DNA of 32,000 bases from Desulfobulbus propionicus DSM 2032 (lineage in GTDB: Bacteria; Desulfobacterota; Desulfobulbia; Desulfobulbales; Desulfobulbaceae). The stretch's first letter is position 1; each line of letters begins with the position of its first letter. The stretch covers positions 1,680,001-1,712,000 of the forward strand of contig NC_014972.1 of the NCBI RefSeq assembly GCF_000186885.1, written 5' to 3'. Made by a program: the position numbers and the translations under genes. The notes beneath the pieces were generated by a model that made no database searches, was not told the DNA's origin, and saw nothing but the letters and a program-made list of their open reading frames with translations. Positions 10,450 to 29,577 of the stretch are shown in pieces.

Positions 10450-10521
10450 GCCCCCCGAAAGTTGTCCGCATCAGCGATTGCTGACAAAGAAGGCCGGTTC
10501 ATCCCGATATCCGGCGTCGCG

Positions 10522-11070
10522 CTAGACCACCTTGACGTTGCGTGCCTGCGGCCCCTTGTCGCCGTCTTCCTCGCGGAATTGCACCGCCGTGCCGATGGTC
10601 AAGGCATCGAAATTCGTATTGAGCACGCTGTTGCGGTGAAAATAGATGTCCCGGTCATCCGAGGTGGTGATGGTGCCGTAGTCCTCCATGGGCGAGAGAT
10701 GGGTGATCTTGCCCGATGGTATTTCCTCGTGGACCTTGACTTCGCCCTTGCGCCGCTCCGTGTATTGTTCGAGCTGGCGACCGGCGGCGGCAAAGGCGTC
10801 GCGCAAGGCGACATAGACATCCTGATGGGCCTGGTTGCGCGGGTCCGGCTCGCGGTTCACCTCCAGCTTGCCCTCTGGACAGGTGAGATCGATGCGGATT
10901 TTATAAAGGCCGCCCTTCTGCTTGTTCTGCAACGGCGCCTCCACCACCACCCGGCAACTGATGATTCCGCCGTGATACCGGCTCAACTTTTCGACACGCT
11001 TGCGGATTTCCGCTTCAACGGCTTCCGATTTCGCGGTGTTCCGAAACGTAACTTGTAAGGGTACCTGCAT
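10522..11070 (-). CDS. HPF/RaiA-like ribosome-associated domain fused to a C-terminal cold-shock-like (CSD) domain
   Basis: Track ORF is 10522-11175. I prefer the ATG at 11070 (AAGGAGG 7 nt upstream), giving 182 aa. N-terminal MQVPLQVTFRNTAKSEAVEAEIRKRVEKLSRYHGGIISCRVVVE resembles the sigma-54 modulation/S30EA family. C-terminal GKITHLSPMEDYGTITTSDDRDIYFHRNSV..GTAVQFREEDGDKGPQARNVKVV resembles a cold-shock domain. Confidence 0.75.
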   Translation of the reverse strand: MQVPLQVTFRNTAKSEAVEAEIRKRVEKLSRYHGGIISCRVVVEAPLQNKQKGGLYKIRIDLTCPEGKLEVNREPDPRNQAHQDVYVALRDAFAAAGRQLEQYTERRKGEVKVHEEIPSGKITHLSPMEDYGTITTSDDRDIYFHRNSVLNTNFDALTIGTAVQFREEDGDKGPQARNVKVV

Positions 11071-11718
11071 GAGACGCCTCCTTGAGGTGGCACGATAAAC
11101 GGCCCTGGTTTTCTCTTCCCCTTGGCTGACAGCCGAAGGGAAACAGGGGAAGCATGGCGTATTCCTGGCAAACAACCTGAAAAAACTCTTTTTTTTAAAA
11201 TAGAAAAACAGCGAAGGAAATTCAAGGAAGGGAAAGTGGAGAGGGAATGGAGATACAATCTATCCATGTAAACCGTAAGTCATCAATCCACAACCAGGCG
11301 CGAGACATGCCGACCGGCGCAACCGGGTCGCCTCGGGGGCTTGGGGTATGGTGTGGGGATGCCGCGCTCATTGGGCCAGGAGCCTGAGGTCGGATTCGCC
11401 TGCGATGGAAAATACGACGGCGGCAAGGGCTTGATGGTGCCGGTTTGTCCGATCGGCCCGGAGAAGCCGCTCATCGATGGCGGCGGTGCGACCGGGCTGA
11501 ACCCCTTGTCCTGCAAGCAAAGTCAACCTGCCCTCTCTTTGGGGGCGGCTCCATTGTGGCGATTCGCGCCGCGATCACCCAGGATGGTTGGTAAAATAAT
11601 GAGTGATATTTGATGGTTGTTGCTTGCGTCCACCTGTGGTAGGAAAAGGTGTGCCGCTGGCGGCCGAGCCGAGCTCCCGACGGTCAGCAGCCATGACTAT
11701 CCGCAACGGAGGAACGGC

Positions 11719-12705
11719 ATGTCCGAACGGCTGAAGTTCGAGCGCTTTTTCTGGTTTCACGCGCAGGTCAAGCGAGCGCGCTTCCCCAATACCAGAAATC
11801 TGGTCGAGACATTCGAGGTTTCGGAACGAACCGCCCAGCGAGACATCGACTTCATGCGTGACCGATTGGATGCGCCCCTCGAATTCGATCGATCGCGAAA
11901 CGGCTACCGCTACACGGACGACGCCTACGAAATTCCTGCCTCGTGGATCGACGAGGACAGCCTGTTGTCCTTGGCCCTGGCGGCGCGGCTGGCCTCGACC
12001 ATACCCGATACCGCCGTCAAGGAGGATTTGTGCCGCTTGATCGGTCGCATGCTCCGCCTTTCCCGACACGAGGAATATGCCTGCCTCGATCGGCTGGGCG
12101 ACAAGGTTTCCGTCAAGAATATCGAGTACGCCCGGGTAGATGAACAGTTTTTTCGTCTGATTGTTCAGGCCCTGTTCGACGACCGCTCCCTGCGCATCAC
12201 CTATTGTTCCCCACACAGCGGCGCAGTCTCCGAACGGATAGTGCAGCCGCTCCACCTGATGCACTACATGGGCAGTTGGCATCTGCTGGCTTGGTGCGCC
12301 GCCAGGGAAGCCATCCGCGATTTTGCCTTGGCTCGATTGCAGGCGGTTGCATTGGCCGATACCCCCGTGCAAGTGCCCCTCGACCTACCGCCGATCAAGG
12401 AATATACCCGCCGCCACTTCGGCATCATGCAAGGCGAGACCGCCACCATCGTGACCCTGCGTTTCTCGCCCCACATCGCCCCTCGCATCCGCGAGCAGAT
12501 CTGGCACCCCGACCAGCAGACCACCCCGAAGCCCGACGGCAGCCTCCTGCTCAGCTTTCCCACCGCCGATTTCCGCGAACTGACCCGAAATATCCTCAGC
12601 TACGGCGCCGAGGTGCGGGTGGAGGAACCGGCGGAGCTACGGGAGCTGGTTCGCGGGGAAATCGAGAAAATGTTCAGAAATTTGTGCAGCCCTGACATCG
12701 AATGA
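11719..12705 (+). CDS. HTH + WYL domain transcriptional regulator, CRISPR-associated by position
   Basis: Track ORF is 11617-12705. I prefer the ATG at 11719 (GGAGG 7 nt upstream), 328 aa. N-terminal wHTH (NTRNLVETFEVSERTAQRDIDFMRDRL). Central WYL-type segment (RIVQPLHLMHYMGSWHLLAWCAAREAIRDFALARL). Ends 64 nt before cas3, same strand. Confidence 0.8.
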   Translation: MSERLKFERFFWFHAQVKRARFPNTRNLVETFEVSERTAQRDIDFMRDRLDAPLEFDRSRNGYRYTDDAYEIPASWIDEDSLLSLALAARLASTIPDTAVKEDLCRLIGRMLRLSRHEEYACLDRLGDKVSVKNIEYARVDEQFFRLIVQALFDDRSLRITYCSPHSGAVSERIVQPLHLMHYMGSWHLLAWCAAREAIRDFALARLQAVALADTPVQVPLDLPPIKEYTRRHFGIMQGETATIVTLRFSPHIAPRIREQIWHPDQQTTPKPDGSLLLSFPTADFRELTRNILSYGAEVRVEEPAELRELVRGEIEKMFRNLCSPDIE

Positions 12706-12769
12706 CAGGGCGGGGGTGGTAGGGTGGAGCCATGCCGGATACAAGAGAAGAGGTACAGGGAATTTTCCA

Positions 12770-14986
12770 ATGAACCATCATGACACCTTAGTTCCAGTTG
12801 CACATTCAAAGTCACCGTCGGACTGGCAAAGTCTCGAAGCCCATTTGGAAAAAGTTGCCGAGTTGGCAGAGCAACATGCAATGGCGTTTGGTGCCGCATC
12901 CTGGGGGCGGCTTGTCGGTCTTTGGCATGATCTGGGGAAATTTTCTCCCGATTTCCAGGAGTATATCCGGCAGGCCAGTGAAGCCCATTTGGAGAGCAAG
13001 CAAGGGCGGGTTAACCACTCATCAGCGGGGGCGTTACTGGCTATCGAGCGATTTGGTAAGATTGGGCGTATCTTGGCCTATTGCATTATGGGCCACCATG
13101 CGGGACTGCCGGATTGGCAGAGCGAAATTGCGCCACGAGCATCTCTTGCATGGCGGCTGGAACAGAAGGAGTTGCTTCCAACGGCAATAGAGGCTGGTAT
13201 CCCGACCGCAATCCTGAATCAAGCACTCCCCACAGAAAAAGCAAAAAACGGCACCGGGCTTTCACGTTCGCTTTGGCTGCGCATGCTTTTTTCCAGCCTT
13301 GTTGATGCCGATTTTCTCGATACCGAGGCTTTCATGGACCCTGAAAAGGCTCGGCGGCGTCAGGGGTATCCCACTCCTACCGAACTGGCGCCGTTGTTTG
13401 ATCGGTATATGACCGAGAAAACAGCAGGAGCGCCCTTCACAAAGGTCAACCGCATTCGCGCCGAGGTATTGCAGGCGTGTAGGGAGAAGGCGGCAGATTC
13501 CTCGGGGTTGTTTACCCTCACCGTGCCCACCGGTGGTGGCAAAACCCTTTCTTCTCTGGCATTTTCCCTATGCCATGCCACCTTTCATGGCAAACGGCGA
13601 ATCATCTACGTTATTCCTTATACCAGTATCATCGAGCAGACGGCGGACCAGTTCCGCGCCATCTTTGGCGAGGCGGTTCTGGAACACCACAGCAACCTGG
13701 ATGTCGCCGATGTGTCAAAGGAAGATGCGCGCAGTCGCCTGGCTTGCGAGAATTGGGATGCTCCCCTCATTGTCACTACCACGGTACAGTTCTTCGAGTC
13801 CTTGTTCGCCAGCCGCACTAGCCGATGCCGAAAGCTGCATAATATCGCGCAGAGCGTGGTGATTCTGGACGAAGCGCAACTCCTGCCGACAGATTTTCTC
13901 AAACCGGTTTTGGAAGTCATGCGAGAGCTGCAGGAGAATTACGGCGTCACCTTCGTGCTCTCCACAGCTACTCAGCCTGCCCTCGGGCCACACAAGAGCA
14001 TGGATTTCGATTTTGCTGGCCTACCCGGTTTACGAGAAATCATTCCCCCTTCATTGAACCTTTACGAGCGCTTGCAACGCACCAGGGTAAAGACTCTGGA
14101 GGGACTAACGACTTCACTCCCCTGGGATGCTCTCGCGTCACGCCTTAGTAGCCATGAATCTGTGCTCTGCATCGTCAATCGTCGTGACGATGCCCGTGTC
14201 CTGTGGGAGAAAATGCCTGTAGGCACCTTCCATCTTTCCGCTCTCATGTGCGGGGCGCATCGGTCTGAACGGATTGCTGAAATCAAGGCCAACCTGAAGG
14301 CGGAAAAGCCAACAAGAGTGGTCAGTACCCAACTTGTCGAAGCAGGTGTTGACCTCGATTTTCCAGTGGTCTACCGGGCGCTTGCCGGGCTCGACTCCGT
14401 GGCGCAAGCAGCCGGTCGTTGCAACCGGGAAGGGGCTTTGGAGCAAGGCATGGTGTACATCTTTCAACCGGAGAGCAAGATACCTGCGGGTTATCTTCGA
14501 CAAGCCGCCGAGATCGGTCGCCAACTCTTAATGGAGCAGAAGGTTGATCCTCTTGCCCCGGAGCGGTTCGAGCAGTATTTTCGGATGTTCTATTGGCTGC
14601 GCGGCTCTCTGCTCGACAAGGAAAATATTCTGGAATTGCTTGGCAATGACCCGGAACTGCGGATCAGTTTCCGCACGGCCGCCGAAAAGTTCAAGCTCAT
14701 CGATGAAGGTGTTTATGTGCCGGTCCTTGTTCAATATGGGGAAAAAGGCTGCCAACTGATTGATCTTTTGCGGCGCCAGGGGCCGGAACGTTGGATTCTT
14801 CGGCAAGCGCAACGCTATGTGGTCAATCTGCCACGATCCGTCCATGGGCAACTGTTGATCGACGGAGCCATCGAGGAAATCCATCCCGGTATCTTTGTGC
14901 AGGGGCACGGTAATTTGTACGACCGTAATCTCGGGTTTTGCGCGGATCGTTCTTTGATCTACGCACCGGATGAACTGATGATCTGA
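12770..14986 (+). CDS. cas3: type I CRISPR-associated helicase/nuclease Cas3 (HD + SF2 helicase)
   Basis: Track ORF is 12716-14986; the likely start is the ATG at 12770 (MNHHDTLVPVAH...). HD motifs GLWHDLGKFSPDFQ, NHSSAGA, MGHHAGLPD. Helicase motif I VPTGGGKT and motif II VILDEAQ; later QAAGRCNREG. Confidence 0.93.
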   Translation: MNHHDTLVPVAHSKSPSDWQSLEAHLEKVAELAEQHAMAFGAASWGRLVGLWHDLGKFSPDFQEYIRQASEAHLESKQGRVNHSSAGALLAIERFGKIGRILAYCIMGHHAGLPDWQSEIAPRASLAWRLEQKELLPTAIEAGIPTAILNQALPTEKAKNGTGLSRSLWLRMLFSSLVDADFLDTEAFMDPEKARRRQGYPTPTELAPLFDRYMTEKTAGAPFTKVNRIRAEVLQACREKAADSSGLFTLTVPTGGGKTLSSLAFSLCHATFHGKRRIIYVIPYTSIIEQTADQFRAIFGEAVLEHHSNLDVADVSKEDARSRLACENWDAPLIVTTTVQFFESLFASRTSRCRKLHNIAQSVVILDEAQLLPTDFLKPVLEVMRELQENYGVTFVLSTATQPALGPHKSMDFDFAGLPGLREIIPPSLNLYERLQRTRVKTLEGLTTSLPWDALASRLSSHESVLCIVNRRDDARVLWEKMPVGTFHLSALMCGAHRSERIAEIKANLKAEKPTRVVSTQLVEAGVDLDFPVVYRALAGLDSVAQAAGRCNREGALEQGMVYIFQPESKIPAGYLRQAAEIGRQLLMEQKVDPLAPERFEQYFRMFYWLRGSLLDKENILELLGNDPELRISFRTAAEKFKLIDEGVYVPVLVQYGEKGCQLIDLLRRQGPERWILRQAQRYVVNLPRSVHGQLLIDGAIEEIHPGIFVQGHGNLYDRNLGFCADRSLIYAPDELMI

Positions 14987-14996
14987 AGGAGGAAAC

Positions 14997-15680
14997 ATGA
15001 ACGGAAACGGAAAGCGAAGCGCTCTCTTCCGCCTCAAGGTCTGGGGGCGAAACGCCTGCTTTACCAGGCCAGAAATGAAAGTGGAACGTGTTTCGTACGA
15101 TGTGATGACGCCTTCGGCAGCTCGGGGCGTACTTGAGGCCATCCTGTGGAAACCGGCTATTCGTTGGCTGGTGGAACGCATCGACGTCCTGGCTCCGATC
15201 CGTTGGGAGTCAGTCCGGAGGAACGAGGTCGGCAGTGTCATGTCCCCGCGTTCCAACGGAATTTTTATTGAGGACCAGAGGCAACAGCGGGCCGGATTGT
15301 TCCTGCGGGATGTGGCCTACACCATCCATGCGCGTCTGGAATTAACAGCCAAGGCCGGGGCGGAAGACAACCTCACCAAGTTTCAGGAAATGTTTCTGCG
15401 TAGGGCGGAGAAGGGGCAATGCTTTCATCGGCCCTACCTCGGTTGCCGGGAATTTGCCGCTGACTTCACTTTGATCCGTCAGGAGGAACCGTTACCGGAA
15501 CCGATAGGTATATCCCGTGATCTTGGCTGGATGCTGTACGATATTCAGCATGACAACCGGGCCGACAAAAACCATGTGCATTGCTGTACCGAATCCTGCC
15601 GACCTTCTTTCTTTCGGGCGGAACTATCCAATGGGGTTTTGCTTGTGCCATCGCCTGGCGATGGGGAGGTGCGGCAATGA
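14997..15680 (+). CDS. cas5c: Cas5c (Cas5d), type I-C Cascade subunit and pre-crRNA endoribonuclease
   Basis: 227 aa. FRLKVWGRNACFTRPEMKVERVSYDVMTPSAARGVLEAILWKPAIRW is the characteristic Cas5d N-terminus. No cas6 in the locus, as expected for I-C. Confidence 0.92.
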   Translation: MNGNGKRSALFRLKVWGRNACFTRPEMKVERVSYDVMTPSAARGVLEAILWKPAIRWLVERIDVLAPIRWESVRRNEVGSVMSPRSNGIFIEDQRQQRAGLFLRDVAYTIHARLELTAKAGAEDNLTKFQEMFLRRAEKGQCFHRPYLGCREFAADFTLIRQEEPLPEPIGISRDLGWMLYDIQHDNRADKNHVHCCTESCRPSFFRAELSNGVLLVPSPGDGEVRQ

Positions 15681-17419
15681 TTTTACAGGCTTTGGCAAGT
15701 TATTATCGCCGTCTATCCGAAGAAGCCGGCGCGGAAGTGGCTCCCGAGGGATTTGAAAAAAAGGAAATACCCTTTGTCATTGTGTTGGATCGCTCCGGGC
15801 ATTTTATCGGTTTAGATGATACGCGCGAGGGAGAAGGGAAGAAAAAGTTGGCACGGGTGTTTACCGTCCCGAAAGGTATCAAGAAAACCAGTGGAATCGC
15901 CGCAAATGTTTTATGGGATACACCAGCCTATATCGTCGGTCGGCCCAAACCGGATCCCAAGAAAGAAACAGTCAAACTTTTAGAACGAGCACAAGAACAA
16001 TTTCAATGTTTCCAAGATACTATTCGGGCGACTTTTTCGGATAACGAGCAGGACGAAGCAATTGCAGCCGTGTTGAATTTCCTCGGGAAAAGAGATTTTG
16101 AGCAGCTTTTTTCCCATACCGCGTGGAAAGAAATTGAGGAAAAGGGGATGAATATATCCTTTCGACTCGACACGGACACCTGTCTGATTTGCCAGCGCCC
16201 TGGTATTGTTGCGCAACTCATAGGTAACACGCAAAGAGTGGAAGGGGGCGATACCCATCGGGTGTGCCTTGTTTCCGGCGAACCGGATGAGCCGACCCGC
16301 CTGCACACGGCTATCAAGGGGGTATGGGGCGCACAAACGTCGGGAGCCAATATTGTTTCTTTCAACCTCGATGCGTTTCGTTCTTATGGAAAAGAACAAG
16401 GATTGAATGCGCCGGTGGGAGGAAGGGCTGAATTTGCATATACTACGGCACTAAATTCCATGTTGGTCAAAGGCTCGAAGCAGCGAATGCAAGTTGGTGA
16501 TGCTTCTACCGTCTTTTGGGCCGAGAAGAAAAACGATCTGGAAGATGTTTTTGCCGACATCTTTGGCGAACCATCGAAAGAAAATCCCGAGCAAGCCACC
16601 AAGGCTATTCGCATTCTCTACGAAGCCCCGAAGGCCGGGGCGCCACCGTTGACTGAAGATTACACGCCATTCTTCGTTTTGGGGCTTGCCCCCAACGCCG
16701 CCCGCATCGCTGTGCGTTTTTGGCATGCGGGCACGGTGGGTGAGACTGCCCGCCATATCTTGCAACATTTTGAAGATTGCAAAATGGTGCATGGCCCCAA
16801 ACAGCCTGGGTTTCTATCCCTTTTCCGCTTACTCGTCTCCACAGCCCTGCAAGGAAAGTCGGAAAATATCCCACCCAATCTTGCTGGCGAGTTCATGAAG
16901 GCAATTCTCGCCGGCACCCCTTACCCAAAAACCCTCTTGGCGGCGGTTCTCCGCCGTTGCCGGGCAGAACGTGAAATAACCTATCCCCGCGCCGCGCTTT
17001 TAAAAGCGGTTCTGGCTCGGGCAGCTCGATTTTATCGTCAATCAGAACAGGAGGTAGGTATGGCCTTGGATACAGGCAACAGCAATATCGGCTATCGGCT
17101 CGGGCGACTGTTCGCCACGCTGGAAAAGATTCAAGAAGAGGCAAGCCCCGGCATCAATGCAACCATCCGCGACCGTTTTTATGGTGCAGCTTCCAGCACT
17201 CCGGTGGCCGCTTTTCCGCATCTGATGAAATTGAAAAATCATCATCTTGCCAAGTTGGATAACCGGGGCCGTGCCGTGAATCTGGAAAAGGTGATCGGCG
17301 AGATCATGGATGGCATTGTCGATTTCCCGACGCATCTCTCTCTTCAGGATCAAGGCCGCTTCGCGGTGGGCTACTACCATCAACGCCAAGCCTTTTTCAT
17401 CAAAAACGAAACCAATTGA
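15677..17419 (+). CDS. cas8c: Cas8c (Csd1), type I-C large subunit
   Basis: Track ORF is 15581-17419. The real start is probably the ATG at 15677, overlapping the cas5 stop (ATGA): MILQALASYYRRLSEEAGAEVAPEGFEKKEIPFVIVLDRSG, a typical Csd1 N-terminus. 580 aa. Confidence 0.92.
   Translation: MILQALASYYRRLSEEAGAEVAPEGFEKKEIPFVIVLDRSGHFIGLDDTREGEGKKKLARVFTVPKGIKKTSGIAANVLWDTPAYIVGRPKPDPKKETVKLLERAQEQFQCFQDTIRATFSDNEQDEAIAAVLNFLGKRDFEQLFSHTAWKEIEEKGMNISFRLDTDTCLICQRPGIVAQLIGNTQRVEGGDTHRVCLVSGEPDEPTRLHTAIKGVWGAQTSGANIVSFNLDAFRSYGKEQGLNAPVGGRAEFAYTTALNSMLVKGSKQRMQVGDASTVFWAEKKNDLEDVFADIFGEPSKENPEQATKAIRILYEAPKAGAPPLTEDYTPFFVLGLAPNAARIAVRFWHAGTVGETARHILQHFEDCKMVHGPKQPGFLSLFRLLVSTALQGKSENIPPNLAGEFMKAILAGTPYPKTLLAAVLRRCRAEREITYPRAALLKAVLARAARFYRQSEQEVGMALDTGNSNIGYRLGRLFATLEKIQEEASPGINATIRDRFYGAASSTPVAAFPHLMKLKNHHLAKLDNRGRAVNLEKVIGEIMDGIVDFPTHLSLQDQGRFAVGYYHQRQAFFIKNETN
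17060..17419 (+). CDS. cas11c: candidate Cas11c small subunit, translated from an internal in-frame start within cas8c
   Basis: In-frame ATG at 17060, with AGGAGG ending 6 nt upstream of the ATG, inside the coding sequence (cagaACAGGAGGtaggtATG). It yields 119 aa (MALDTGNSNIGYRLGRLFATLEKIQEE...). Type I-C systems are known to make Cas11 by internal translation of the cas8c 3' end. Confidence 0.6.
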   Translation: MALDTGNSNIGYRLGRLFATLEKIQEEASPGINATIRDRFYGAASSTPVAAFPHLMKLKNHHLAKLDNRGRAVNLEKVIGEIMDGIVDFPTHLSLQDQGRFAVGYYHQRQAFFIKNETN

Positions 17420-17441
17420 TATTTCCTAGGAGGAGCAACTT

Positions 17442-18302
17442 ATGAGAAATCCAATCCAGAACCGGTATGACTTTGTGCTTTTGTTTGATGTAAAAGACGG
17501 TAACCCCAACGGTGATCCGGACGCTGGCAACCTGCCTCGTATCGACCCGGAAACAGGGCATGGTCTTGTCACCGATGTCTGCCTCAAACGGAAGGTGCGC
17601 AATTATGTGCAATTGGAGAAAGGCGGGGCAGTGGCCTTTGATATATTTGTGAAGGAGAGGGCCATTCTCAATAACCTTATTGATGAAGCCCATGAACAGG
17701 ACATTGTGAAAAGCAAAGAGAAAGGAGATAAAACGGAGGCTGCTCGCCAATTCATGTGCGGTAAATATTACGATGTGCGTACATTCGGCGCTGTGATGTC
17801 CACTGGGAAGAATGCTGGCCAAGTCCGTGGTCCGGTACAATTTACTTTTGCCCGGAGTGTTGATCAGATTGTGCCATTGGAGCACAGCATTACCCGTATG
17901 GCGGTGGCCACCGAGGCCGAAGCTGAAAAGCAGCAGGGCGACAACCGAACCATGGGGCGAAAATTTACCGTCCCATACGCACTTTATTGCTGCCATGGCT
18001 TTATTTCAGCCCCTTTGGCCGCTCAAACCGGATTTAGCGAAGACGATCTCAACCTGTTCTGGCAGGCCGTCATCAACATGTTCGAGCACGACCGTTCCGC
18101 AGCCCGTGGATTGATGAGCAGCCGCAAGCTCTTTGTGTTCAAACATGAGAATAAGATGGGGAATGCCCCGGCGCACAAATTGTTTGACTTGATCGACATC
18201 CAGCGGGCGGAAGGCTCGACCGGTCCGGCCCGTTCGTTCAAGGATTATGTGGTGAAGGTTGGCGCAGCACCTGATGGTGTGACGTTACTGGAAAAACTGT
18301 AA
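17442..18302 (+). CDS. cas7c: Cas7c (Csd2), type I-C Cascade backbone subunit
   Basis: 286 aa. [49 protein letters not shown] is the hallmark Csd2 N-terminus. AGGAGG upstream of the start. Confidence 0.93.
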
Positions 18303-18328
18303 TCCATAACTGTGATATTGAAGCTGTA

Positions 18329-19369
18329 ATGGAGGTGTCCTTTCCTATGCAACAGCTTGATTCCGCACCCTCCGCCATCATCCTCTATCAGACCGCAGAC
18401 GGACAAACCTCTTTGGATGTCCGGCTTCAGGAGGAAACCGTCTGGCTCTCGTTGACCCAAATAGCCGAGCTGTTCGACCGTGACAAGTCGGTAATATCCA
18501 GACATCTCAGGAACATCTTTCGGGAAGGAGAGTTGGTCAGAGCGGCAGTTGTTGCAAAAAATGCAACAACTGCCGCGGACGGCAAAACGTACCAGGTGGA
18601 ATTTTTCAACCTGGATGCGATCATCTCTGTCGGCTACCGAGTCAACTCCAAACGCGGCACCCAGTTTCGCATCTGGGCCTCGTCCGTGCTCAAGGAGTAT
18701 CTGGTCAAGGGGTATGCCCTCAACCGGCGACGGTTGGCAGAGCAGGGCGTGGCCGAGTTGCGAGGCGTGCTCGATCTGTTGGCGGCAGCCCTGGAACGCA
18801 ATCAACTCACCGACGAAACCGGATTGGCGGTGGTGGAGCTGGTGCGGCGCTATGGGATGAGCTGGCAATTGCTCCTGCAATACGACGAAGACCGGTTGGC
18901 CCTGCCGGCCGGGCTCAATCGGCGGGAGTCGGTGGGCTTTGATCTGGCCATGGTGCGCCGGGGCATTGCCTGTTTACGGGAAGAACTGGCGATCAGAGGC
19001 GAGGCCACCGATTTGTTCGGTCGGGAGCGCGGCGAAAGCTTGGCCGGTATTCTCGGCGCCATCCATCAGACCTTCGGCGGCCAGGACCTCTACCCGAGCA
19101 TCGAGGAAAAGGCCGCCCATCTCCTCTATTTCGTGATCAAGGATCACCCCTTCAGCGACGGCAACAAGCGCATCGGCTCCTTTCTTTTTCTCCTCTATCT
19201 GCAGGAAAGCGGGCTGATCGAGACAGTCCGCTTCGACAACAAGGCCGTGGTAGCCCTGGCCCTGCTAGTGGCCGCCTCCGACCCGGTCCAGAAGGAGGTG
19301 CTCATCCGGTTGATCGTTAATTTGCTCGGCGAATCAATCCCATCCGACGGAGGAGGGCAGCATGGCTGA
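18329..19369 (+). CDS. RhuM / Fic-DOC family protein inserted in the cas operon
   Basis: 346 aa (alternative start ATG 18347, 11 nt after GGAGG). N-terminal half is RhuM-like (WLSLTQIAELFDRDKSVISRHLRNIF, FFNLDAIISVGYRVNSKRGTQFRIWA). C-terminal half has the Fic/Doc core motif HPFSDGNKRIG, which is Doc-type (GNKR). Its stop overlaps the cas4 start by 8 nt (ATGGCTGA, 19362-19369). Confidence 0.8.
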   Translation: MEVSFPMQQLDSAPSAIILYQTADGQTSLDVRLQEETVWLSLTQIAELFDRDKSVISRHLRNIFREGELVRAAVVAKNATTAADGKTYQVEFFNLDAIISVGYRVNSKRGTQFRIWASSVLKEYLVKGYALNRRRLAEQGVAELRGVLDLLAAALERNQLTDETGLAVVELVRRYGMSWQLLLQYDEDRLALPAGLNRRESVGFDLAMVRRGIACLREELAIRGEATDLFGRERGESLAGILGAIHQTFGGQDLYPSIEEKAAHLLYFVIKDHPFSDGNKRIGSFLFLLYLQESGLIETVRFDNKAVVALALLVAASDPVQKEVLIRLIVNLLGESIPSDGGGQHG

Positions 19370-20039
19370 GATCGCCCCGGAACAATCGATCCTCAAAACA
19401 TACGAACCGCCGCCGTACGACGAGGACGACCTGGTGATGATCTCCGCCTTGCAGCATTACCTGTTCTGTCCGCGCCAGTGTGCTTTGATCCATATCGAAC
19501 AACAATGGCTCGAAAACCGATTGACCGCCGAAGGTCGCCTCCTTCATGAACGGGTGCATGGCGGCGGCCGGGAATCGCGGCGACAACTGCGGGTGGAGTT
19601 CGATGTGCCCATTCGTTCGTTGCGGCTGGGGGTGATCGGCCGGGCGGACATCGTCGAATTTCATCGGCGGGAGGATGGGCTGTGGTGTCCCCTGCCAGTG
19701 GAATACAAGCGCGGACGACCCAAGAAGGACGATACCGACCGGGTGCAGCTCTGCGCTCAGGCCCTCTGTCTGGAAGAGATGCTACGGTGCGCCGTACCCG
19801 AGGGGGCGCTCTACTACGGCGAAAAGAAGCGGCGGTCGGCGGTGCTGTTCGACGCACCCTTGCGGGAGAAGACGGCACAGACGGCGAAGGCGGTCCACGC
19901 CCTGCTTACGGGGGGAAGGACGCCGCCACCCCATTATGCGGCCCGCTGCGAGAACTGTTCATTCATGCCGCTCTGTCTGCCCAAGGTGGCGACCAGGAAG
20001 CGGGTGGGGCATTATCTGCACAAAATGATGGGGGTATGA
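19362..20039 (+). CDS. cas4: Cas4 (RecB-like exonuclease with 4-Cys cluster)
   Basis: 225 aa. N-terminal Cys (YLFCPRQCAL), nuclease core (GRADIVEF, EYKRG) and C-terminal CENCSFMPLC. Confidence 0.92.
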   Translation: MAEIAPEQSILKTYEPPPYDEDDLVMISALQHYLFCPRQCALIHIEQQWLENRLTAEGRLLHERVHGGGRESRRQLRVEFDVPIRSLRLGVIGRADIVEFHRREDGLWCPLPVEYKRGRPKKDDTDRVQLCAQALCLEEMLRCAVPEGALYYGEKKRRSAVLFDAPLREKTAQTAKAVHALLTGGRTPPPHYAARCENCSFMPLCLPKVATRKRVGHYLHKMMGV

Positions 20040-21064
20040 AAAAACATCTCAACACCCTGTTCGTCACCACCCAGGGGGCCTACCTGGCCAAGGATGGCGA
20101 GACCGTGGCGGTCCGCATCGAGGGCGAGGTGGTCCTGCGGGTCCCGCTCCATACCCTGGAATCCATCGTCTGTCTCGGTAATGTCGGTTGCAGCCCTTTT
20201 TTGATGGGATTCTGCGGCGAGCGTGGGGTGGGGATGAGTTTTCTCACTGAAAACGGGCGATTTCTGGCGCGGGTGCAAGGGCCGGTTTCGGGCAACGTGC
20301 TGCTGCGGCGCGAGCAGTACCGCCGCGCCGACGATCCGGATTTTTCCGCTGCCGTGGCCAGTGCTTGCGTGCTCGGCAAGGTGGCCAACTGCCGGACCGT
20401 GCTCCTTCGCGCCTTGCGTGATCATGGCAACAAGGTAGATGCGCCGGTGCTACAGGAGGCTATCGACCGGTTGGCAGCGGCGCTCAGGCGATTGCAGGGC
20501 GGATTGGCGTTGGAGGAGGTGCGCGGGGTGGAAGGTGATGCGGCCCGGGTCTATTTCAGTGCCTTCGATCATCTCATCGTCCGCGACAAAGACAAATTTT
20601 TCATGCGCCAGCGCAGTCGCCGGCCGCCGCTTGACCGTATCAACTGCTTGATTTCCTTCCTCTACACGTTGCTGCTCAACGATGTGCGCTCCGCGCTTGA
20701 ATCGGTGGGCCTTGATCCGGCGGTCGGCTATCTGCACCGCGATCGTCCGGGGCGGGCCGGATTGGCCCTTGATCTGATGGAGGAGTTCCGGCCCATGGCG
20801 GATCGGCTGGCGGTTTCATTGGTCAATCTGGGACAGTTGCGCGAGGAGGATTTTGTGTTCAGCGACGGCGGCGCGGTGCGGATGAGCGATGAGGCCCGCA
20901 AAACCCTGCTGGTAGCGTATCAGAAGCGCAAACAGGAAGAAATGGTGCATCCCTTTCTGGAGGAGAAAATGTCGCTGGGGCTGTTTTTTCATACCCAAGC
21001 CCTGCTCTTTGCCCGCTATCTGCGTGACGAACTCGACGGTTATCCGCCGGTGATGTGGAAATAG
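20036..21064 (+). CDS. cas1: Cas1 integrase
   Basis: Track ORF is 19682-21064. The real start is probably the ATG at 20036, overlapping the cas4 stop (ATGA): MKKHLNTLFVTTQGAYLAKDGETVAVRIEG... 342 aa. Conserved GVEGDAARVYF and GYLHRDRPGRAGLALDLMEEFR. Confidence 0.93.
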   Translation: MKKHLNTLFVTTQGAYLAKDGETVAVRIEGEVVLRVPLHTLESIVCLGNVGCSPFLMGFCGERGVGMSFLTENGRFLARVQGPVSGNVLLRREQYRRADDPDFSAAVASACVLGKVANCRTVLLRALRDHGNKVDAPVLQEAIDRLAAALRRLQGGLALEEVRGVEGDAARVYFSAFDHLIVRDKDKFFMRQRSRRPPLDRINCLISFLYTLLLNDVRSALESVGLDPAVGYLHRDRPGRAGLALDLMEEFRPMADRLAVSLVNLGQLREEDFVFSDGGAVRMSDEARKTLLVAYQKRKQEEMVHPFLEEKMSLGLFFHTQALLFARYLRDELDGYPPVMWK

Positions 21065-21076
21065 GGGAGGGCGGCC

Positions 21077-21367
21077 ATGATGGTGCTGGTGAGTTACGAT
21101 GTGCGCACAAGCGAGCCAGGCGGCGCCAAGCGCTTGCGGCGGGTGGCCAAGGTGTGCCGCAATTTCGGTCAGCGGGTACAATTTTCGGTGTTCGAGTGCA
21201 TGGTGGACCCGGCGCAATGGACCCGATTGCGGCAGGCGTTGATTGACGAGATCGACATGGAGGCCGACAGTCTCCGTTTTTACTTCCTCGGGGCCAACTG
21301 GCGCAACCGGGTGGAGCATGTCGGCGCCAAGGAGAGCGTGGACCAGGAAGGTCCGCTGATTGTGTAA
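21077..21367 (+). CDS. cas2: Cas2
   Basis: 96 aa, MMVLVSYDVRTSEPGGAKRLRRVAKVCRNFGQRVQFSVFEC..., a typical Cas2 ferredoxin fold N-terminus. Confidence 0.93.
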   Translation: MMVLVSYDVRTSEPGGAKRLRRVAKVCRNFGQRVQFSVFECMVDPAQWTRLRQALIDEIDMEADSLRFYFLGANWRNRVEHVGAKESVDQEGPLIV

Positions 21368-21540
21368 ACCGGTCCGCGAACCGTCATCGCCCAGCAGATG
21401 ACGGACGGTTCGCGATGCCTGTGGTTGCGACGGTTGACAAGGATTTGAGCAACAAGAGGAGGTGAATCAAGCCGCTCAGATCGGACGATCGCGGAACATG
21501 CTGGAAAAACTGATTCGTAATGCAATGTTGCGAGTCAGCA
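21368..21540 (+). promoter_or_regulatory. CRISPR leader
   Basis: 173-nt non-coding stretch between the cas2 stop and the first repeat. Contains an imperfect hairpin (CGCGAACCGTCATC 21375-21388 / GATGACGGACGGTTCGCG 21397-21414, no U-tract) and a perfect TTGACA at 21434-21439, but I could not find a matching -10 box. Polarity is supported by repeat decay at the far end of the array. Confidence 0.6.
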
Positions 21541-24500
21541 GTCGCCCCCCACGCGGGGGCGTGGATTGAAACACGTATCGCAGCGCGTCACCGTTGCTCT
21601 TCACCGCGTCGCCCCCCACGCGGGGGCGTGGATTGAAACGCGAGGAACGCGGAGAAGTTGATACCGGATGCAAGTCGCCCCCCACGCGGGGGCGTGGATT
21701 GAAACTCAGCCTCCCCCTCAACGAGGAGTGGGAGACAAGTCGCCCCCCACGCGGGGGCGTGGATTGAAACCGCTGCTGCTGGCGACAAACTCGTTATATG
21801 CCTCGTCGCCCCCCACGCGGGGGCGTGGATTGAAACTTATGCTGGGTGGTCGGTTGTCTGGTAGATATCGTGTCGCCCCCCACGCGGGGGCGTGGATTGA
21901 AACCAGCTAGAGGTCGCTGTCGCGCCAGAGATCGACCGTCGCCCCCCACGCGGGGGCGTGGATTGAAACCTCGCAACATTACGCCGCATCCCGTATCGCC
22001 CGAGTCGCCCCCCACGCGGGGGCGTGGATTGAAACTCAAGCGCCCATGCCGTGCAAGTTTTAGCGTCGCCGTCGCCCCCCACGCGGGGGCGTGGATTGAA
22101 ACTTTTTGCTGCCTTTTTTTGCTGCCTTGTTGCTGCCGTCGCCCCCCACGCGGGGGCGTGGATTGAAACTCGGCGCAGATAAAAAGGAAGTTTTCAAACC
22201 GAGTCGCCCCCCACGCGGGGGCGTGGATTGAAACACCGCTTCCATCGAAGCCTCAAGTCCAACAATTGCGTCGCCCCCCACGCGGGGGCGTGGATTGAAA
22301 CGCTGCTCCTTGCTGGTCTCCGGCCCTTGCGCGAGTCGCCCCCCACGCGGGGGCGTGGATTGAAACTGGTAAATCGTATTATCTGGTCAGGTTGCTGGCC
22401 GTCGCCCCCCACGCGGGGGCGTGGATTGAAACCTGTTAAAGCGGTATACCTGCTCGACTATGACCAAAGTCGCCCCCCACGCGGGGGCGTGGATTGAAAC
22501 AAAGACGACATCATGACTTATGACAGGCACTTCAAGTCGCCCCCCACGCGGGGGCGTGGATTGAAACCTGTTAAAGCGGTATACCTGCTCGACTATGACC
22601 AAGTCGCCCCCCACGCGGGGGCGTGGATTGAAACACAGATAGTAAACCCGAAAATCGAAAGTGTTTTTAGTCGCCCCCCACGCGGGGGCGTGGATTGAAA
22701 CCTGTTAAAGCGGTAATCCTCCAGGGGGATTTCCTGTCGCCCCCCACGCGGGGGCGTGGATTGAAACAGACTGCCGGTAGCAGCGACGCGGCTGCATCGC
22801 TGGGTCGCCCCCCACGCGGGGGCGTGGATTGAAACCGGCAAATCGTATTATCTGGTCAGGTTGCTGGCCGTCGCCCCCCACGCGGGGGCGTGGATTGAAA
22901 CATGGCAAGGGGGGTTGAATGAAACCTAAGCGAAGTCGCCCCCCACGCGGGGGCGTGGATTGAAACGGTGCAGTTGTTACTATATAGACAAGGAAGGGGG
23001 GTCGCCCCCCACGCGGGGGCGTGGATTGAAACGCCGCTCCTGGTGTCGCTCAATGGGATGAAGACGGTCGCCCCCCACGCGGGGGCGTGGATTGAAACGG
23101 TTTTGAAGCGATGAACCCGGCAGAATGACCGGGTCGCCCCCCACGCGGGGGCGTGGATTGAAACTTTTTGAACCGACATCGCTGCGCTCGTCGGCGGGCG
23201 TCGCCCCCCACGCGGGGGCGTGGATTGAAACGAGGAAATCGTCATGATCGGAGCATTGGCAGGCAGTCGCCCCCCACGCGGGGGCGTGGATTGAAACATG
23301 CAGGTTGCGCTCATTGCGCTTGAGCAAATAGGTCGCCCCCCACGCGGGGGCGTGGATTGAAACCGAAACATGCCAATAACGAAACTCCCCCATCAAGTCG
23401 CCCCCCACGCGGGGGCGTGGATTGAAACCTTAGCGTCATCTTGGGTTCAGATTATTGGCGGCGGGTCGCCCCCCACGCGGGGGCGTGGATTGAAACCGGA
23501 GACCGTCACGTCCTGGCCAGAAACGAAACCAGTCGCCCCCCACGCGGGGGCGTGGATTGAAACCTCGGCCGCATCGATCATCGATCCCGCCTCATGTCGT
23601 CGCCCCCCACGCGGGGGCGTGGATTGAAACACCGGCGACGCGCCGACCAGGAGGGTCTGAAATGTCGCCCCCCACGCGGGGGCGTGGATTGAAACCACAT
23701 CACCATGCCGAGTTTTGGCAACACGCCAAGTCGCCCCCCACGCGGGGGCGTGGATTGAAACTCAAACCAGGAGAACACCGGTGCCGGCACCTCTGGTCGC
23801 CCCCCACGCGGGGGCGTGGATTGAAACGCGCCGAGCAGTTTCGGCACAACTGGAACCCGACGTCGCCCCCCACGCGGGGGCGTGGATTGAAACTCTGAAA
23901 TCAACTGTTGCCACACCTGCTGCTGCTGTCGCCCCCCACGCGGGGGCGTGGATTGAAACGCGGCAGCATGGCCGCAGATCGCCGACGCTTATGCGGTCGC
24001 CCCCCACGCGGGGGCGTGGATTGAAACTTGCTGGAGACATTGGCGCGGTTGCAGGGCCAAGTCGCCCCCCACGCGGGGGCGTGGATTGAAACCAAGTCAA
24101 TGGCCATATCAGCCTGAAACGAATCGGTCGCCCCCCACGCGGGGGCGTGGATTGAAACCCGTGCTGACATGGCTGCGCAAGCATGCCCGTGTGGTCGCCC
24201 CCCACGCGGGGGCGTGGATTGAAACGCCGCATCAGGCAATGGATGGCTGGAGAGCGCAAAGTCGCCCCCCACGCGGGGGCGTGGATTGAAACCCCGTAAC
24301 AAAGAAGGTGCTCCCTTTTCTTGCCGGGCGGTCGCCCCCCACGCGGGGGCGTGGATTGAAACGCCGATGAGCGTGCCGTAGCTGTACACCCGCACTGCGT
24401 CGCCCCCCACGCGGGGGCGTGGATTGAAACCTGGTGCATCCAGTCCGGCCTGACCTTAACCAGCTGTCGCCCCCCACGCGGGGGCGTGGATTGAAACGCC

Positions 24501-24698
24501 GCACCATGAAATCGTGTGCGAAGCGCTCATGTCGCCCCCCACGCGGGGGCGTGGATTGAAACACGGCCGAACCGCACGCTCCGGACTGCCATTCAAAGGT
24601 CGCCCCCCACGCGGGGGCGTGGATTGAAACGACGATGTGTCTGACGACGTGATTGCCGCAGCTCCGGTCGCCCCCCACGCGGGGGCGTGGATTGAAAC

Positions 24699-24832
24699 TG
24701 GCCGGCTCGCTGCCAATAACTCCTGGCAGGCGCGTCGCCCCCCACGCGGGGGCGTGGATTGAAACTGGCCGGCTCGCTGCCAATAACTCCTGGCAGGCGC
24801 GTCGCCCCCCACGCGGGGGCGTGGATTGAAAC
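24699..24832 (+). repeat. tandem duplication of one spacer-repeat unit inside the array
   Basis: Spacer TGGCCGGCTCGCTGCCAATAACTCCTGGCAGGCGC occurs at 24699-24733 and again at 24766-24800, in consecutive units. Confidence 0.9.
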
Positions 24833-24845
24833 TGCAGACTGATAA

Positions 24846-25049
<204 letters not shown>

Positions 25050-25823
25050 TGAAAGAAAAAATGAGTCGCCCCCCACGCGGGGGCGTGGATTGAAACATCA
25101 TGCCGCCCCCTCCACATTGACCCATGATATGTCGCCCCCCACGCGGGGGCGTGGATTGAAACGTGAACTTCCGCGCCATCTTCTTGTTCATGATCAGTCG
25201 CCCCCCACGCGGGGGCGTGGATTGAAACACGAGGGGTCAGGGGCCACAATCCTGCTGATCGGGTCGCCCCCCACGCGGGGGCGTGGATTGAAACATACTT
25301 GCCGACCAGTGGCAAGAGCGGGTTACTAGTCGCCCCCCACGCGGGGGCGTGGATTGAAACCTTTTTCCCATTGCTTATATGCTCAGGTGATAGGTCGCCC
25401 CCCACGCGGGGGCGTGGATTGAAACAACTCCCCCGGTTACGGACTTACAAAATCCCCAAGTCGCCCCCCACGCGGGGGCGTGGATTGAAACGCAGTAAGT
25501 GCCACGCCATAGGACAATGGTATGGTCGCCCCCCACGCGGGGGCGTGGATTGAAACATTGAGCGCAAAGAGATCACAGGCAAGAACGGTGGGTCGCCCCC
25601 CACGCGGGGGCGTGGATTGAAACACGTATTGCAGCGCGTCACCGTCTTCCTTCACCGCGTCGCCCCCCACGCGGGGGCGTGGATTGAAACCCTGGATTGT
25701 GGATGCTGGCAGACAGGGAAGGACGGTCGCCCCCCACGCGGGGGCGTGGATTGAAACTGGGCCATGCTCACCATGGCCTCGATAGCCTTGTGTCGCCCCC
25801 CACGCGGGGGCGTGGATTGAAAC

Positions 25824-26355
25824 ATCTGGCATCAAGGAGTGTCGCGGTTACGAAACGGTCGCCCCCCACGCGGGGGCGTGGATTGAAACTGTATCGGAAG
25901 TTGAACTTAAAAACAAAGGAGGTGTCGCCCCCCACGCGGGGGCGTGGATTGAAACATGTCGAGCTCATGGTTGCCGGGGTGAGGTACCGGCGTCGCCCCC
26001 CACGCGGGGGCGTGGATTGAAACCATGGCCTCCGGGATGGTTGGACCGGTGGGGATGGTCGCCCCCCACGCGGGGGCGTGGATTGAAACATCTGGCATCA
26101 AGGAGTGTCGCGGTTACGAAACGGTCGCCCCCCACGCGGGGGCGTGGATTGAAACTGTATCGGAAGTTGAACTTAAAAACAAAGGAGGTGTCGCCCCCCA
26201 CGCGGGGGCGTGGATTGAAACATGTCGAGCTCATGGTTGCCGGGGTGAGGTACCGGCGTCGCCCCCCACGCGGGGGCGTGGATTGAAACCATGGCCTCCG
26301 GGATGGTTGGACCGGTGGGGATGGTCGCCCCCCACGCGGGGGCGTGGATTGAAAC
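25824..26355 (+). repeat. tandem duplication of a 266-bp block of four spacer-repeat units
   Basis: The spacers starting ATCTGGCATCAAGG.., TGTATCGGAAGTTG.., ATGTCGAGCTCATGG.. and CATGGCCTCCGGGATGG.. at 25824-26089 are repeated in the same order at 26090-26355. Confidence 0.9.
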
Positions 26356-26445
26356 CCCGCCGTCATCGCTGAGTTGGTTGAGAATAAACGTCGCCCCCCA
26401 CGCGGGGGCGTGGATTGAAACCCGTTTTTGGTCTTCCCAGGCTGA

Positions 26446-26622
<177 letters not shown>

Positions 26623-27282
26623 TGATTCAATCGCCTGCCTCAACTTGTCCTTGAGTGTCGCCCCCCACGCGGGGGCGTGGATTGAAACTTGGGTATACGA
26701 CCGGGAAGATTTACAAAGAGGCCAGTCGCCCCCCACGCGGGGGCGTGGATTGAAACTTTACTGTACGGTGCATTATTTTCTATCGTTGTAGTCGCCCCCC
26801 ACGCGGGGGCGTGGATTGAAACGTTACGGGGGAAACGGTCCCCTATCTAGGGTTTGTCGCCCCCCACGCGGGGGCGTGGATTGAAACATAATAACTACCA
26901 TACTGTAGGATAATGATATACTAGTCGCCCCCCACGCGGGGGCGTGGATTGAAACGTTAGTTTGTTTGTTTATTCGGTTGTCTCTCGCTGTCGCCCCCCA
27001 CGCGGGGGCGTGGATTGAAACTTCAACTCAAGGCCAACGCCGAAATCCTCAAGGCCGTCGCCCCCCACGCGGGGGCGTGGATTGAAACTGATGAAGATCA
27101 CGCTATCGAGGAATGTGATGGTGTCGCCCCCCACGCGGGGGCGTGGATTGAAACTTTATGACGGAATGGTAAGCGCTGATAATTTTGGTCGCCCCCCACG
27201 CGGGGGCGTGGATTGAAACTATATCACCCTTAACGCCTCCCCAAAAATGGGGTGTCGCCCCCCACGCGGGGGCGTGGATTGA

Positions 27283-27549
<267 letters not shown>

Positions 27550-27665
27550 TGAAACTTGAAACCGCTAAACGAACGCTACCCGATCAAAGGTCGCCCCCCA
27601 CGCGGGGCGTGGATTGAAACCGAAACTGCAAATCACGGGCGGTCCATGAGGGCCACCCCGCGCTG

Positions 27666-27890
27666 GTGATTCGGGCCAAGGGCAAAAAGGCCCTGTTTTG
27701 GAAAGGAGCACGGCACCCGGTGAAGGCGGTACATCAACCGGCGCGGAAGGGGAAGCCTTTCTTGCGGGAAGCGGCCGAGGAGCTGGAGCGCGAAGGATAT
27801 GACTTCCTCGACCGCTATTTAACAGACAAGGTGAACGAAAAAATTGCCAAGGAGATCAAGGGCAAGATCACTTTGACGTTGAAGCTGTGA
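27666..27890 (+). CDS. probable 3' fragment of a phage gene (weak resemblance to the HK97 gp10-type head-tail protein C-terminus)
   Basis: 74 aa from a GTG start. The frame is already open from 27618, inside repeat R92, with no ATG. HPVKAVHQPARKGKPFLREAAEE resembles the H/G..PFLRPA segment of HK97-gp10-like proteins. Low certainty. Confidence 0.35.
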   Translation: MIRAKGKKALFWKGARHPVKAVHQPARKGKPFLREAAEELEREGYDFLDRYLTDKVNEKIAKEIKGKITLTLKL

Positions 27891-27935
27891 CCTGAGCTAA
27901 GCTGTTGCTTGCCGTTGAGAGTAGCAACTGTATAC

Positions 27936-29572: not shown

Positions 29573-29577
29573 ATCCC

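Follow-up and report, generated by a model that had tools for sequence, protein, structure and literature searches.

Genes that fuse a RhuM domain to a DOC domain are known from type I restriction-modification (R-M) operons, where they have been proposed to act as toxins in multi-level defence and hold a position equivalent to that of PrrC (Anantharaman et al. 2013, PMC3710099). Zhang, Doak and Ye (2014, PMC3936711) catalogued 10 Fic/DOC genes in cas3-containing loci, some of them with a Virulence_RhuM domain and eight with a motif that differs from HPFxxGNG, and read toxins in cas loci as immunity coupled to dormancy or suicide; the catalogue comes without position, phylogeny, linkage or mechanism. 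RhuM open reading frames (ORFs) have furthermore been described between cas9 and cas1 in type II-C loci of Bacteroides fragilis (PMC5704556). Here we describe a gene encoding a RhuM and Doc-type Fic protein, hereafter gene X, from a stretch of 32,000 nucleotides of the Desulfobulbus propionicus DSM 2032 genome (the window). As the original prediction had stated, and as Pfam searches confirmed, it lies between cas7 and cas4 of a type I-C operon. Gene X is evidently of the kind catalogued previously (PMC3936711). Within the literature searched, its fixed position at the junction of effector and adaptation genes in type I-C and type I-E loci, its dedicated clade, its co-inheritance with cas4-cas1-cas2 and its frequency of about 30% appear to be new, and the I-E cases and an inverted repeat inside the gene are also added here. 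The arrangement is no singular oddity, as had been assumed, since both Fic/DOC genes in type I cas loci (PMC3936711) and RhuM-DOC genes in R-M operons (PMC3710099) were already reported. A literature search for type I-C systems with a Fic accessory gene found nothing, and the main text of the CRISPRicity preprint leaves Fic, DOC and RhuM unmentioned. Arguing largely by analogy, we put at roughly 45% the probability that gene X encodes an operon-embedded dormancy or abortive-infection effector, a single-chain sensor-effector that would be a stable passenger of type I adaptation modules.

Profile searches agreed with the predicted RhuM-like N-terminus and Doc-type Fic C-terminus of the protein. 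Virulence_RhuM (PF13310) matched residues 73-139 with an E-value of 6e-24 (85 bits, cut-off 33.7), and as the match covers profile positions 1-70 of 252 it represents the N-terminal RhuM core only. Fic (PF02661), a domain carried by all listed homologs, matched residues 236-291 (E 2.3e-11, 44.8 bits, cut-off 24). The PADLOC family PDC-S23 gave a full-length match (PDLC04965, E 6.5e-121, residues 15-334 on profile positions 5-324 of 327), while RhuM-type PDC-S05 models of the same database matched the N-terminal half (residues 15-197). TIGR01550, the NCBIfam model of P1 Doc, reached 26.9 bits, below its cut-off of 38.65, and matched residues 258-295 only; with this score and with 346 residues that include extra domains, the protein is not a stand-alone Doc toxin. 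The sequence HPFSDGNKRIG at residues 273-283 agrees with the Doc-type motif HxFx(D/N)(A/G)NKR. It departs from the canonical AMPylase motif HxFx(D/E)GNGRxxR by a Lys in place of the second Gly and by the absence of the final Arg, as do all 85 of 85 full-length homologs, in which HPFxDGNKR is invariant. The best PDB match of a profile of 88 homologs was the Doc-family structure 9vzc (1.2e-6), whose HCFYNANKR aligns with the motif of gene X; AMPylating Fic proteins and P1 Doc matched more weakly. P1 Doc, with the motif HIFNDANKR, shares the Lys. The K-containing motif of Doc binds ATP in an inverted manner, and the K-for-G exchange turns its Fic fold into a kinase with EF-Tu as substrate.

Structure prediction with AlphaFold2 (AF2) on the 88 close homologs gave a predicted local distance difference test score (pLDDT) of 55, and the fold search with that model was discarded; a diverse alignment gave a pLDDT of 84, with 90-98 over residues 210-330. 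The predicted C-terminal ~130 residues superposed on the P1 Doc structures 3k33, 3dd7 and 3kh2 (Foldseek probability 1.0, TM-score 0.64-0.68 on the target, rmsd 3.4-3.8). FICD/HYPE, NmFic and HpFic were matched as well, all of these including P1 Doc at probabilities of 0.9-1.0. The C-domain is predicted to be an all-helical Fic fold that is closest to P1 Doc. For the N-terminal RhuM domain the model gives a Bro-N/KilA-N-like fold, with matches to Bro-N, KilA-N, antirepressor and 'repressor domain' proteins of phages (probability 1.0, E down to 3e-6). Between the two domains the model places a 50-residue helix and further helices. P1 Doc and the product of gene X are thus alike in their Fic fold, which is predicted for the latter, and in the K-containing motif. 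P1 Doc is, however, a single domain of 126 residues that is neutralised by the separately encoded Phd, whereas the product of gene X, with 346 residues, also comprises a Bro-N-like head and a linker of helices, and no Phd gene was found close by. The absence of an adjacent Phd-like antitoxin had been noted before and was confirmed among the called neighbours in the window (cas genes, WYL, S30AE, PBP and ABC), with a 26-nt gap and the overlap with cas4 flanking the gene. The ratio of nonsynonymous to synonymous substitution rates (dN/dS) was 0.10-0.25 for the whole gene against nine homologs and below ~0.3 in each of three regions wherever it was computable; judged by these ratios, gene X is under purifying selection. 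Its family is large, with at least 12,479 representatives of 50%-identity clusters at E<=1e-10.

The position of gene X recurs in other genomes. A scan of species representatives (one genome per species) returned 80 loci with homologs of 54-84% identity, which were classified by tblastn with the Cas proteins of the window and by neighbour clustering. Forty-six of the 80 were in or beside cas loci, and 45 of these were at the junction of effector and adaptation genes, 40 in type I-C and five in type I-E loci. The I-C cases comprised 27 loci with gene X directly upstream of cas4, four with an insert of ~0.7 kb between gene X and cas4 (in L022 a minus-strand PIN gene), five with the order cas4-X-cas1 and four with cas7-X at a contig end. 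In the five I-E loci (L024, L028, L041, L054 and L058) the gene was found between cas6e and cas1, and a single further locus had it upstream of cas3. At least 11 loci were type I R-M operons with gene X inside, two adjoined an integron-type integrase and 21 had another or unknown context. Because the placement in cas operons recurs in 46 of 80 species-representative loci, it is not due to chance. All homologs looked up by exact protein (98, 90, 83, 75, 71 and 65% identity) showed the order cas7-X-cas4-cas1-cas2, among them those of Desulfofustis glycolicus and several metagenome-assembled genomes (MAGs), and synteny was conserved down to 55% identity.

In a neighbour-joining tree, the cas-embedded genes, with I-C and I-E mixed, formed a clade apart from the R-M and other genes; as the tree is midpoint-rooted and without support values, this split is indicative. 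The R-M-embedded sister proteins are 55-62% identical to the protein of the window and have the same invariant residues. In one annotated case, a plasmid of Methylophaga carries the order hsdM-hsdS-RhuM/Fic/DOC-hsdR; other members of the family are on plasmids, beside a Tn3-family transposase or beside integrases. RhuM-DOC proteins of R-M operons, which carry the NCBI name 'virulence protein RhuM/Fic/DOC family protein' and belong to the PADLOC candidate PDC-S23, are similar to gene X in full-length architecture, in HPFxDGNKR, in being embedded in an operon and in their start/stop coupling to the next gene. Gene X differs from them in belonging to a separate clade at the effector/adaptation junction of I-C and I-E cas loci.

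Within the window, the start codon of gene X at 18329 follows the cas7 stop after 26 nt, an 8-nt overlap (ATGGCTGA) is common to its 3′ end and the cas4 start, and the cas4 Shine-Dalgarno sequence GGAGGAGGG (19349-19357) lies inside its 3′ end. These features, and the 346-aa ORF itself, are as the original prediction had given them. The identical 8-nt overlap was present in the gene calls of loci L001, L002 and L006-L012, 23 homologous loci had ATG or GTG at the overlap position, and a stop codon overlapping the start of the next gene (ATGnnTGA or ATGA) was observed in cas as well as R-M contexts. The view that gene X is wired into the operon is therefore supported by an overlap with the downstream start that is conserved in many homologous loci. 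Direct or inverted repeats bracketing the gene were not found in a repeat search, in line with the reported lack of insertion sequence scars, and an insertion mediated by such an element was rejected on this ground.

Comparison with a locus from a near-identical strain (L001) indicated how gene X is inherited. DNA identity between L001 and the window is 99% over 8872-12728, a segment that includes the WYL gene and ends where cas3 starts, and again 99% over 18375-21570, from about codon 16 of gene X through cas2. The intervening part of the window (12729-18374), which holds cas3 to cas7 and the first ~15 codons of gene X, has no DNA match in L001 (3858-10043), and the interference proteins, including Cas3, Cas5 and Cas7, are only 31-35% identical. 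From these alignments, the interference module has been swapped in situ between breakpoints at the start of cas3 and at about codon 16 of gene X; the WYL gene is untouched and gene X is on the constant side together with cas4-cas1-cas2. Among 31 distinct loci, identity of gene X to the copy of the window correlated with that of Cas4 (rho 0.70), Cas1 (0.55) and Cas2 (0.53), weakly with that of Cas7 (0.36) and not with that of Cas3 (0.10). On this sequence evidence, gene X travels with cas4-cas1-cas2 and not with the effector genes.

Such co-inheritance might indicate that the protein tunes spacer capture instead of killing cells. It would then act on the adaptation machinery or on a host factor which this machinery uses: Cas4, Cas1 or an integration host factor might be phosphorylated, for example, or the Bro-N-like head might mark DNA ends. 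Gene X always abuts the adaptation module, be it before cas4, between cas4 and cas1 or, in I-E loci without cas4, before cas1; it was kept with cas4-cas1-cas2 in a 99%-identical block while effector genes were swapped, and its divergence tracks that of Cas4, Cas1 and Cas2 but not that of Cas3. Translational coupling to cas4 would fix the stoichiometry, canonical Fic genes hold the same slot in other I-C loci, and the RhuM-domain ORFs between cas9 and cas1 of B. fragilis II-C loci (PMC5704556) point in the same direction. However, sister proteins of 55-62% identity are encoded in type I R-M operons and beside integron integrases, where adaptation genes are missing, about two thirds of the related I-C loci do without gene X, and the linkage could merely mirror where recombination breakpoints fall. 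We regard a role as modifier of adaptation as unlikely; the co-inheritance and the constant neighbourhood lend circumstantial support to a link with spacer acquisition.

Gene X is an accessory gene that is dispensable and not part of the type I-C core. Among 80 metagenomic loci picked by Cas1 similarity, ~57 reach far enough upstream to be informative, and 18 of these (~30%) contain gene X, either whole or as a fragment. Direct adjacency of cas7 and cas4 was seen in 11 of the ~57, and the remainder have a cas3-last order or other inserts; one locus with the effector type of the window (L110, Cas7 85% identical) is without gene X. Degraded copies were detected in L016, L036, L104 and L115, so that loss of the gene is tolerated. 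In three loci (L019, L071 and L083), an intact gene X stands beside decayed adaptation genes, with only fragments of cas4, cas1 or cas2 left, and can accordingly outlast the cas genes to which it is linked.

Other genes occupy the slot elsewhere. A gene of ~190 codons for a predicted four-helix bundle with a weak match to 23S_rRNA_IVP (PF05635) was found there, just upstream of cas4, in 16 related I-C loci (L125, L129, L130, L132, L138, L146, L150, L155, L162, L163, L171, L173 and L175-L178). A canonical Fic gene (HPFRDGNGR) fills the slot in five loci and a YhcG/DUF1016 nuclease gene in two, and Bro-N, PIN and HEPN/MNT-like genes occur as well. The junction upstream of cas4 is therefore a hot spot for accessory genes. 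A Bro-N protein of ~280 residues (PF02498, 6e-11), of the same fold class as the N-domain of gene X, recurs next to gene X in I-C loci; its gene, often frameshifted, separates cas4 from cas1 or cas7 from gene X (L009-L011, at 11744-12583; L020, L025, L063 and L140), and fragments of it were seen in L022, L027, L031, L032 and L036. A canonical Fic gene (HPFLDGNGR) adjoins gene X in L058 and in the R-M locus L066, and L054 has two tandem copies of gene X. Two more loci were judged by eye from their translations. In L034, from a MAG, a segment of ~8.6 kb (1380-9746) between the I-C cas7 and X-cas4-cas1-cas2 holds large ORFs of Cas10-like and RAMP-like appearance, and the adaptation module linked to gene X may be shared here with a type III-like module. 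In L055, translations revealed a pair of HEPN-like and MNT-like nucleotidyltransferase genes (7362-8212) between cas8c and cas7 of an I-C module.

RhuM-type genes might simply colonise defence operons because these are tolerated, mobile and often expressed, as selfish or neutral passengers with nothing specific to CRISPR. The patchy presence of gene X, its pseudogenes and fragments, and its many contexts on plasmids, beside a Tn3-family transposase and beside integrases are what this explanation would lead one to expect, and the cas7-cas4 junction could be a general dumping ground for small genes of defence islands. It accounts less well for the strong purifying selection across three regions of the gene, for the start/stop overlap conserved with the downstream gene and for a dedicated, long-lived cas-associated clade that spans I-C and I-E. 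We consider it unlikely, if slightly less so than a modifier of adaptation. It is also compatible with gene X being a working defence effector of its own, and none of the alternatives weighed in this work is mutually exclusive with the dormancy or abortive-infection effector proposed above.

For such an effector the following course of events may be envisaged. By analogy with P1 Doc, the Doc-type C-domain would phosphorylate a translation factor and so arrest protein synthesis, and the N-domain and linker would silence it in cis, which would explain the absence of a Phd-type antitoxin. Silencing would be lifted by a cue linked to infection; this could be DNA of foreign origin, a protein of the phage, or the DNA-targeting machinery next door failing or being inhibited. 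Cells would then enter dormancy or abort the infection as a backup to interference, and the translation arrest may buy time for spacer acquisition by Cas4-Cas1-Cas2. Of three hypotheses put forward in the original prediction, this kind of backup is the most likely as judged by analogy and is the prevailing hypothesis for toxins in cas loci, and the listing of the family as a phage-defence candidate in PADLOC speaks for it. Several points weigh against it. The evidence for a kinase consists of a motif of nine residues and of a predicted fold at 18-19% identity to Doc, cis-autoinhibition is a guess, and the geometry between the domains is uncertain in the model (predicted TM-score 0.61, linker pLDDT 55-80). 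The classical inhibitory motif (S/T)xxxE(G/N) was not visible when the sequence was read by eye, PDC-S23 is not named in the literature searched, the degraded copies count on the same side, and the 90-spacer array of the window shows only that gene X does not prevent adaptation.

A precedent for a toxin of this type is PrrC, a HEPN RNase with anticodon nuclease activity that is encoded within the type I R-M operon EcoprrI and serves as a 'guard', firing once its host system is inhibited (discussed in PMC3710099). Like PrrC, gene X would provide a latent translation-targeting toxin inside a DNA-targeting defence operon; the enzymes are unrelated, a HEPN RNase in one case and a predicted Fic kinase in the other. 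Type I R-M operons are known to harbour several of the families found in the slot (PMC9881135, PMC3710099). Since the same families are found in these operons and at the cas7-cas4 junction, RhuM/Doc, Fic and YhcG/DUF1016 genes seem to form a common plug-in set of accessory effectors for DNA-targeting defences. If the C-domain is indeed a translation kinase triggered by infection, gene X would be a natural and widespread dormancy or abortive-infection effector hard-wired to type I spacer-acquisition genes, and the idea that immunity coupled to dormancy buys time for adaptation would become directly testable in the cultivable D. propionicus DSM 2032.

The original prediction had also drawn an analogy to CreTA, for which we found no support. 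CreTA consists of small RNAs, and its crRNA-like (CRISPR RNA-like) CreA guides Cascade to repress creT. Gene X shares with it only the idea of a toxin within a cas operon, but is a large enzyme gene that occurs outside cas loci as well, in type I R-M operons and by integron integrases, and no crRNA-like antitoxin was found: there is no CRISPR-repeat-like sequence in or beside gene X, matches with up to three mismatches being confined to 21541-27555 and 29578. Following CreTA-like logic, the toxin would be held in check by an operon product; a cell that lost or silenced its cas genes would be poisoned, and the locus would be stabilised in this way. A toxin-like protein without separate antitoxin, tightly coupled to cas4 and embedded in the operon rather than appended to it, such that deletions of neighbours would disturb it, might be taken to suggest this. 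We nevertheless find addiction very unlikely. No crRNA-like or other antitoxin element was seen, and loss of the whole locus would remove toxin and antidote together. The neighbour varies between cas4, cas1, hsdR and hsdS, which leaves no constant partner, the upstream effector genes were replaced wholesale while gene X was kept, and the remnant loci L019, L071 and L083 retain it beside decayed cas genes.

Gene X contains a perfect inverted repeat in its coding sequence (Table 1). In the structural model the residues encoded by it are part of a predicted beta-hairpin wing of the N-domain (strands at residues 75-81 and 87-93), and the repeat of the window folds at -31.8 kcal/mol (z = -6.4). All 85 of 85 homologs have an inverted repeat at the equivalent position. 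It occurs in 48 versions, whose stems measure 7-16 bp and whose centres measure 5 or 1 nt. The position is matched in L001-L092 and in L093-L098, across several phyla and including RhuM-only genes. Six distant genes on plasmids of Gammaproteobacteria, Alphaproteobacteria, Bacteroidota and Bacillota, RhuM-only proteins again included, have no stronger inverted repeat than the one at this position. Two RhuM-only genes next to R-M genes also have the repeat, and in three of four neighbouring Bro-N genes the top-scoring repeat occupies the corresponding place.

The two arms change together. In a 73-sequence alignment they pair in 85% of cells, compared with 69% after shuffling and 23-45% after sliding the partners, both sides change in 11 of 13 stem pairs, and 127 cells with double changes were observed against 36.8 +/- 5 in shuffled data (0 of 500 shuffles). 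These co-changes rewrite the peptide (AVVAKNATTA, AVCAKFAHTA, AVVRKSRTTA, SNMQKMHIA and others), and the centre TGCA-AAAAA-TGCA is read in two frames among the homologs. Third codon positions are nearly frozen, with GCA for Ala73 in 47 of 47, GCA for Ala76 in 48 of 48 and AAA for Lys77 in 58 of 58 sequences; mean entropy at third positions is 0.54 bits in the repeat versus 1.30 bits across 231 other columns. Stem pairs are 98% Watson-Crick (838 Watson-Crick, 3 G-U on the plus strand, 6 A-C and 8 other; n=855). There are 16 types of arms, which need at least 34 switches on the tree, and the repeat is intact in pseudogenised copies. We take these patterns as evidence that the repeat is selected at the nucleotide level. 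A purely protein-level cause, i.e. cross-strand pairs of the beta-hairpin, was rejected in view of the frozen third codon positions and the one centre in two frames. Likewise rejected were -1 frameshifting at A_AAA_AAT in the loop, as other repeat types have no slippery heptamer and the stem is not downstream of the site, and an intrinsic terminator, as no T-run follows the repeat on the plus strand. No Rfam family was found for the hairpin beyond sub-threshold chance matches, and extra copies of the half-site, as for an operator, did not exceed chance in the window.

Near-exclusive Watson-Crick pairing with G-U in 3 of 855 pairs favours a constraint at the DNA level and weakens the case for an mRNA stem, and a palindrome that is purely neutral and corrects itself would not be expected to have an invariant AAA at its unpaired centre. 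Tentatively, and with somewhat more doubt than confidence, we suggest that the repeat at its fixed position in RhuM genes, and possibly in the wider Bro-N fold, is a functional nucleic-acid element kept across phyla by concerted changes of its arms. It could be a DNA hairpin or a cruciform, or a dyad site (11+7+11) whose A/T-rich centre would liken it to an operator or to the core site of a recombinase. Its symmetry could also be maintained by template switching and possibly be exploited to diversify the sensor wing; an RNA element or mRNA stem is less likely. The repeat might serve to control expression of the operon-embedded toxin, or recombination of the toxin gene. If so, cas loci would possess a regulatory or recombinogenic DNA element at the boundary of interference and adaptation, where effector swapping was seen. 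The repeat belongs to a very large gene family and could point to a new form of gene-internal regulation or diversification.

The features of the window that are discussed here are listed in Table 1. The I-C locus of D. propionicus is intact, and Pfam matches, together with gene calls from a contig of identical sequence, place the WYL gene through cas2 in one co-oriented operon.

Table 1. Coordinates of gene X, its sequence elements and the surrounding cas locus in the window.
Feature	Position	Strand	Basis or remark
WYL/WCX regulator, 328 aa	11719-12705	+	Pfam WYL 1e-19, WCX 7e-20; PADLOC WYL; upstream of cas3
Interference module cas3-cas5-cas8c-cas7, type I-C	12770-18302	+	Pfam, gene calls
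cas3	12770-14986	+	Pfam, gene calls
cas5 (Pfam Cas5d)	14997-15680	+	Pfam, gene calls
cas8c (Pfam Csd1/Cas8c)	15677-17419	+	Pfam, gene calls
cas7	17442-18302	+	Pfam E 1e-110; stop TAA 18300-18302
Gene X, predicted RhuM(Bro-N-like)-linker-Doc-type Fic, 346 aa	18329-19369	+	ORF; stop TGA 19367-19369
Perfect inverted repeat, 15-bp arms, 5-nt AAAAA centre	18542-18576		encodes aa 72-83 (AAVVAKNATTAA)
Active-site codons HPFSDGNKR, aa 273-281	19145-19171	+	translation; Doc-type Fic motif variant
X/cas4 junction: Shine-Dalgarno-like GGAGGAGGG (19349-19357), cas4 ATG, X stop, 8-nt overlap	19349-19369	+	
Adaptation module cas4-cas1-cas2	19362-21367	+	Pfam
cas4	19362-20039	+	Pfam 2e-24; ATG at 19362
cas1	20036-21064	+	Pfam
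cas2	21077-21367	+	Pfam
CRISPR array, 91 repeats of GTCGCCCCCCACGCGGGGGCGTGGATTGAAAC, 90 identical; 90 spacers	21541-27555	+	repeat search

A simple scan of the plus strand from the regulator to cas2 returned no sigma-70-like promoter, which is weak evidence, and a simple scan likewise gave no terminator-like site at either junction of gene X; the lack of such sites around the gene fits co-transcription, if weakly. In the NCBI annotation the gene starts at the second ATG (18347), which gives a product of 340 residues named 'filamentation induced by cAMP protein Fic' that is 100% identical to our ORF; the exact 346-aa product has no database record. GGAGGTG at 18331-18337 would act as Shine-Dalgarno sequence for the start at 18347. 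The longer N-terminal tail is conserved in length but not in sequence among homologs. Because homologs keep this longer N-terminus and one of them (L003) is without the second Met, a start at 18329 appears plausible. Downstream of the cas genes, the last repeat of the array (27524-27555, one mismatch) is followed by a gap of 2 kb. The gap holds a minus-strand ORF of 457 codons (28199-29572) with a weak match to Phage_Mu_F (E 7e-4, below cut-off), and beyond it, at the end of the region 27556-29609, stands a lone CRISPR repeat with one mismatch (29578-29609). The CRISPR array may have been split by an insertion.

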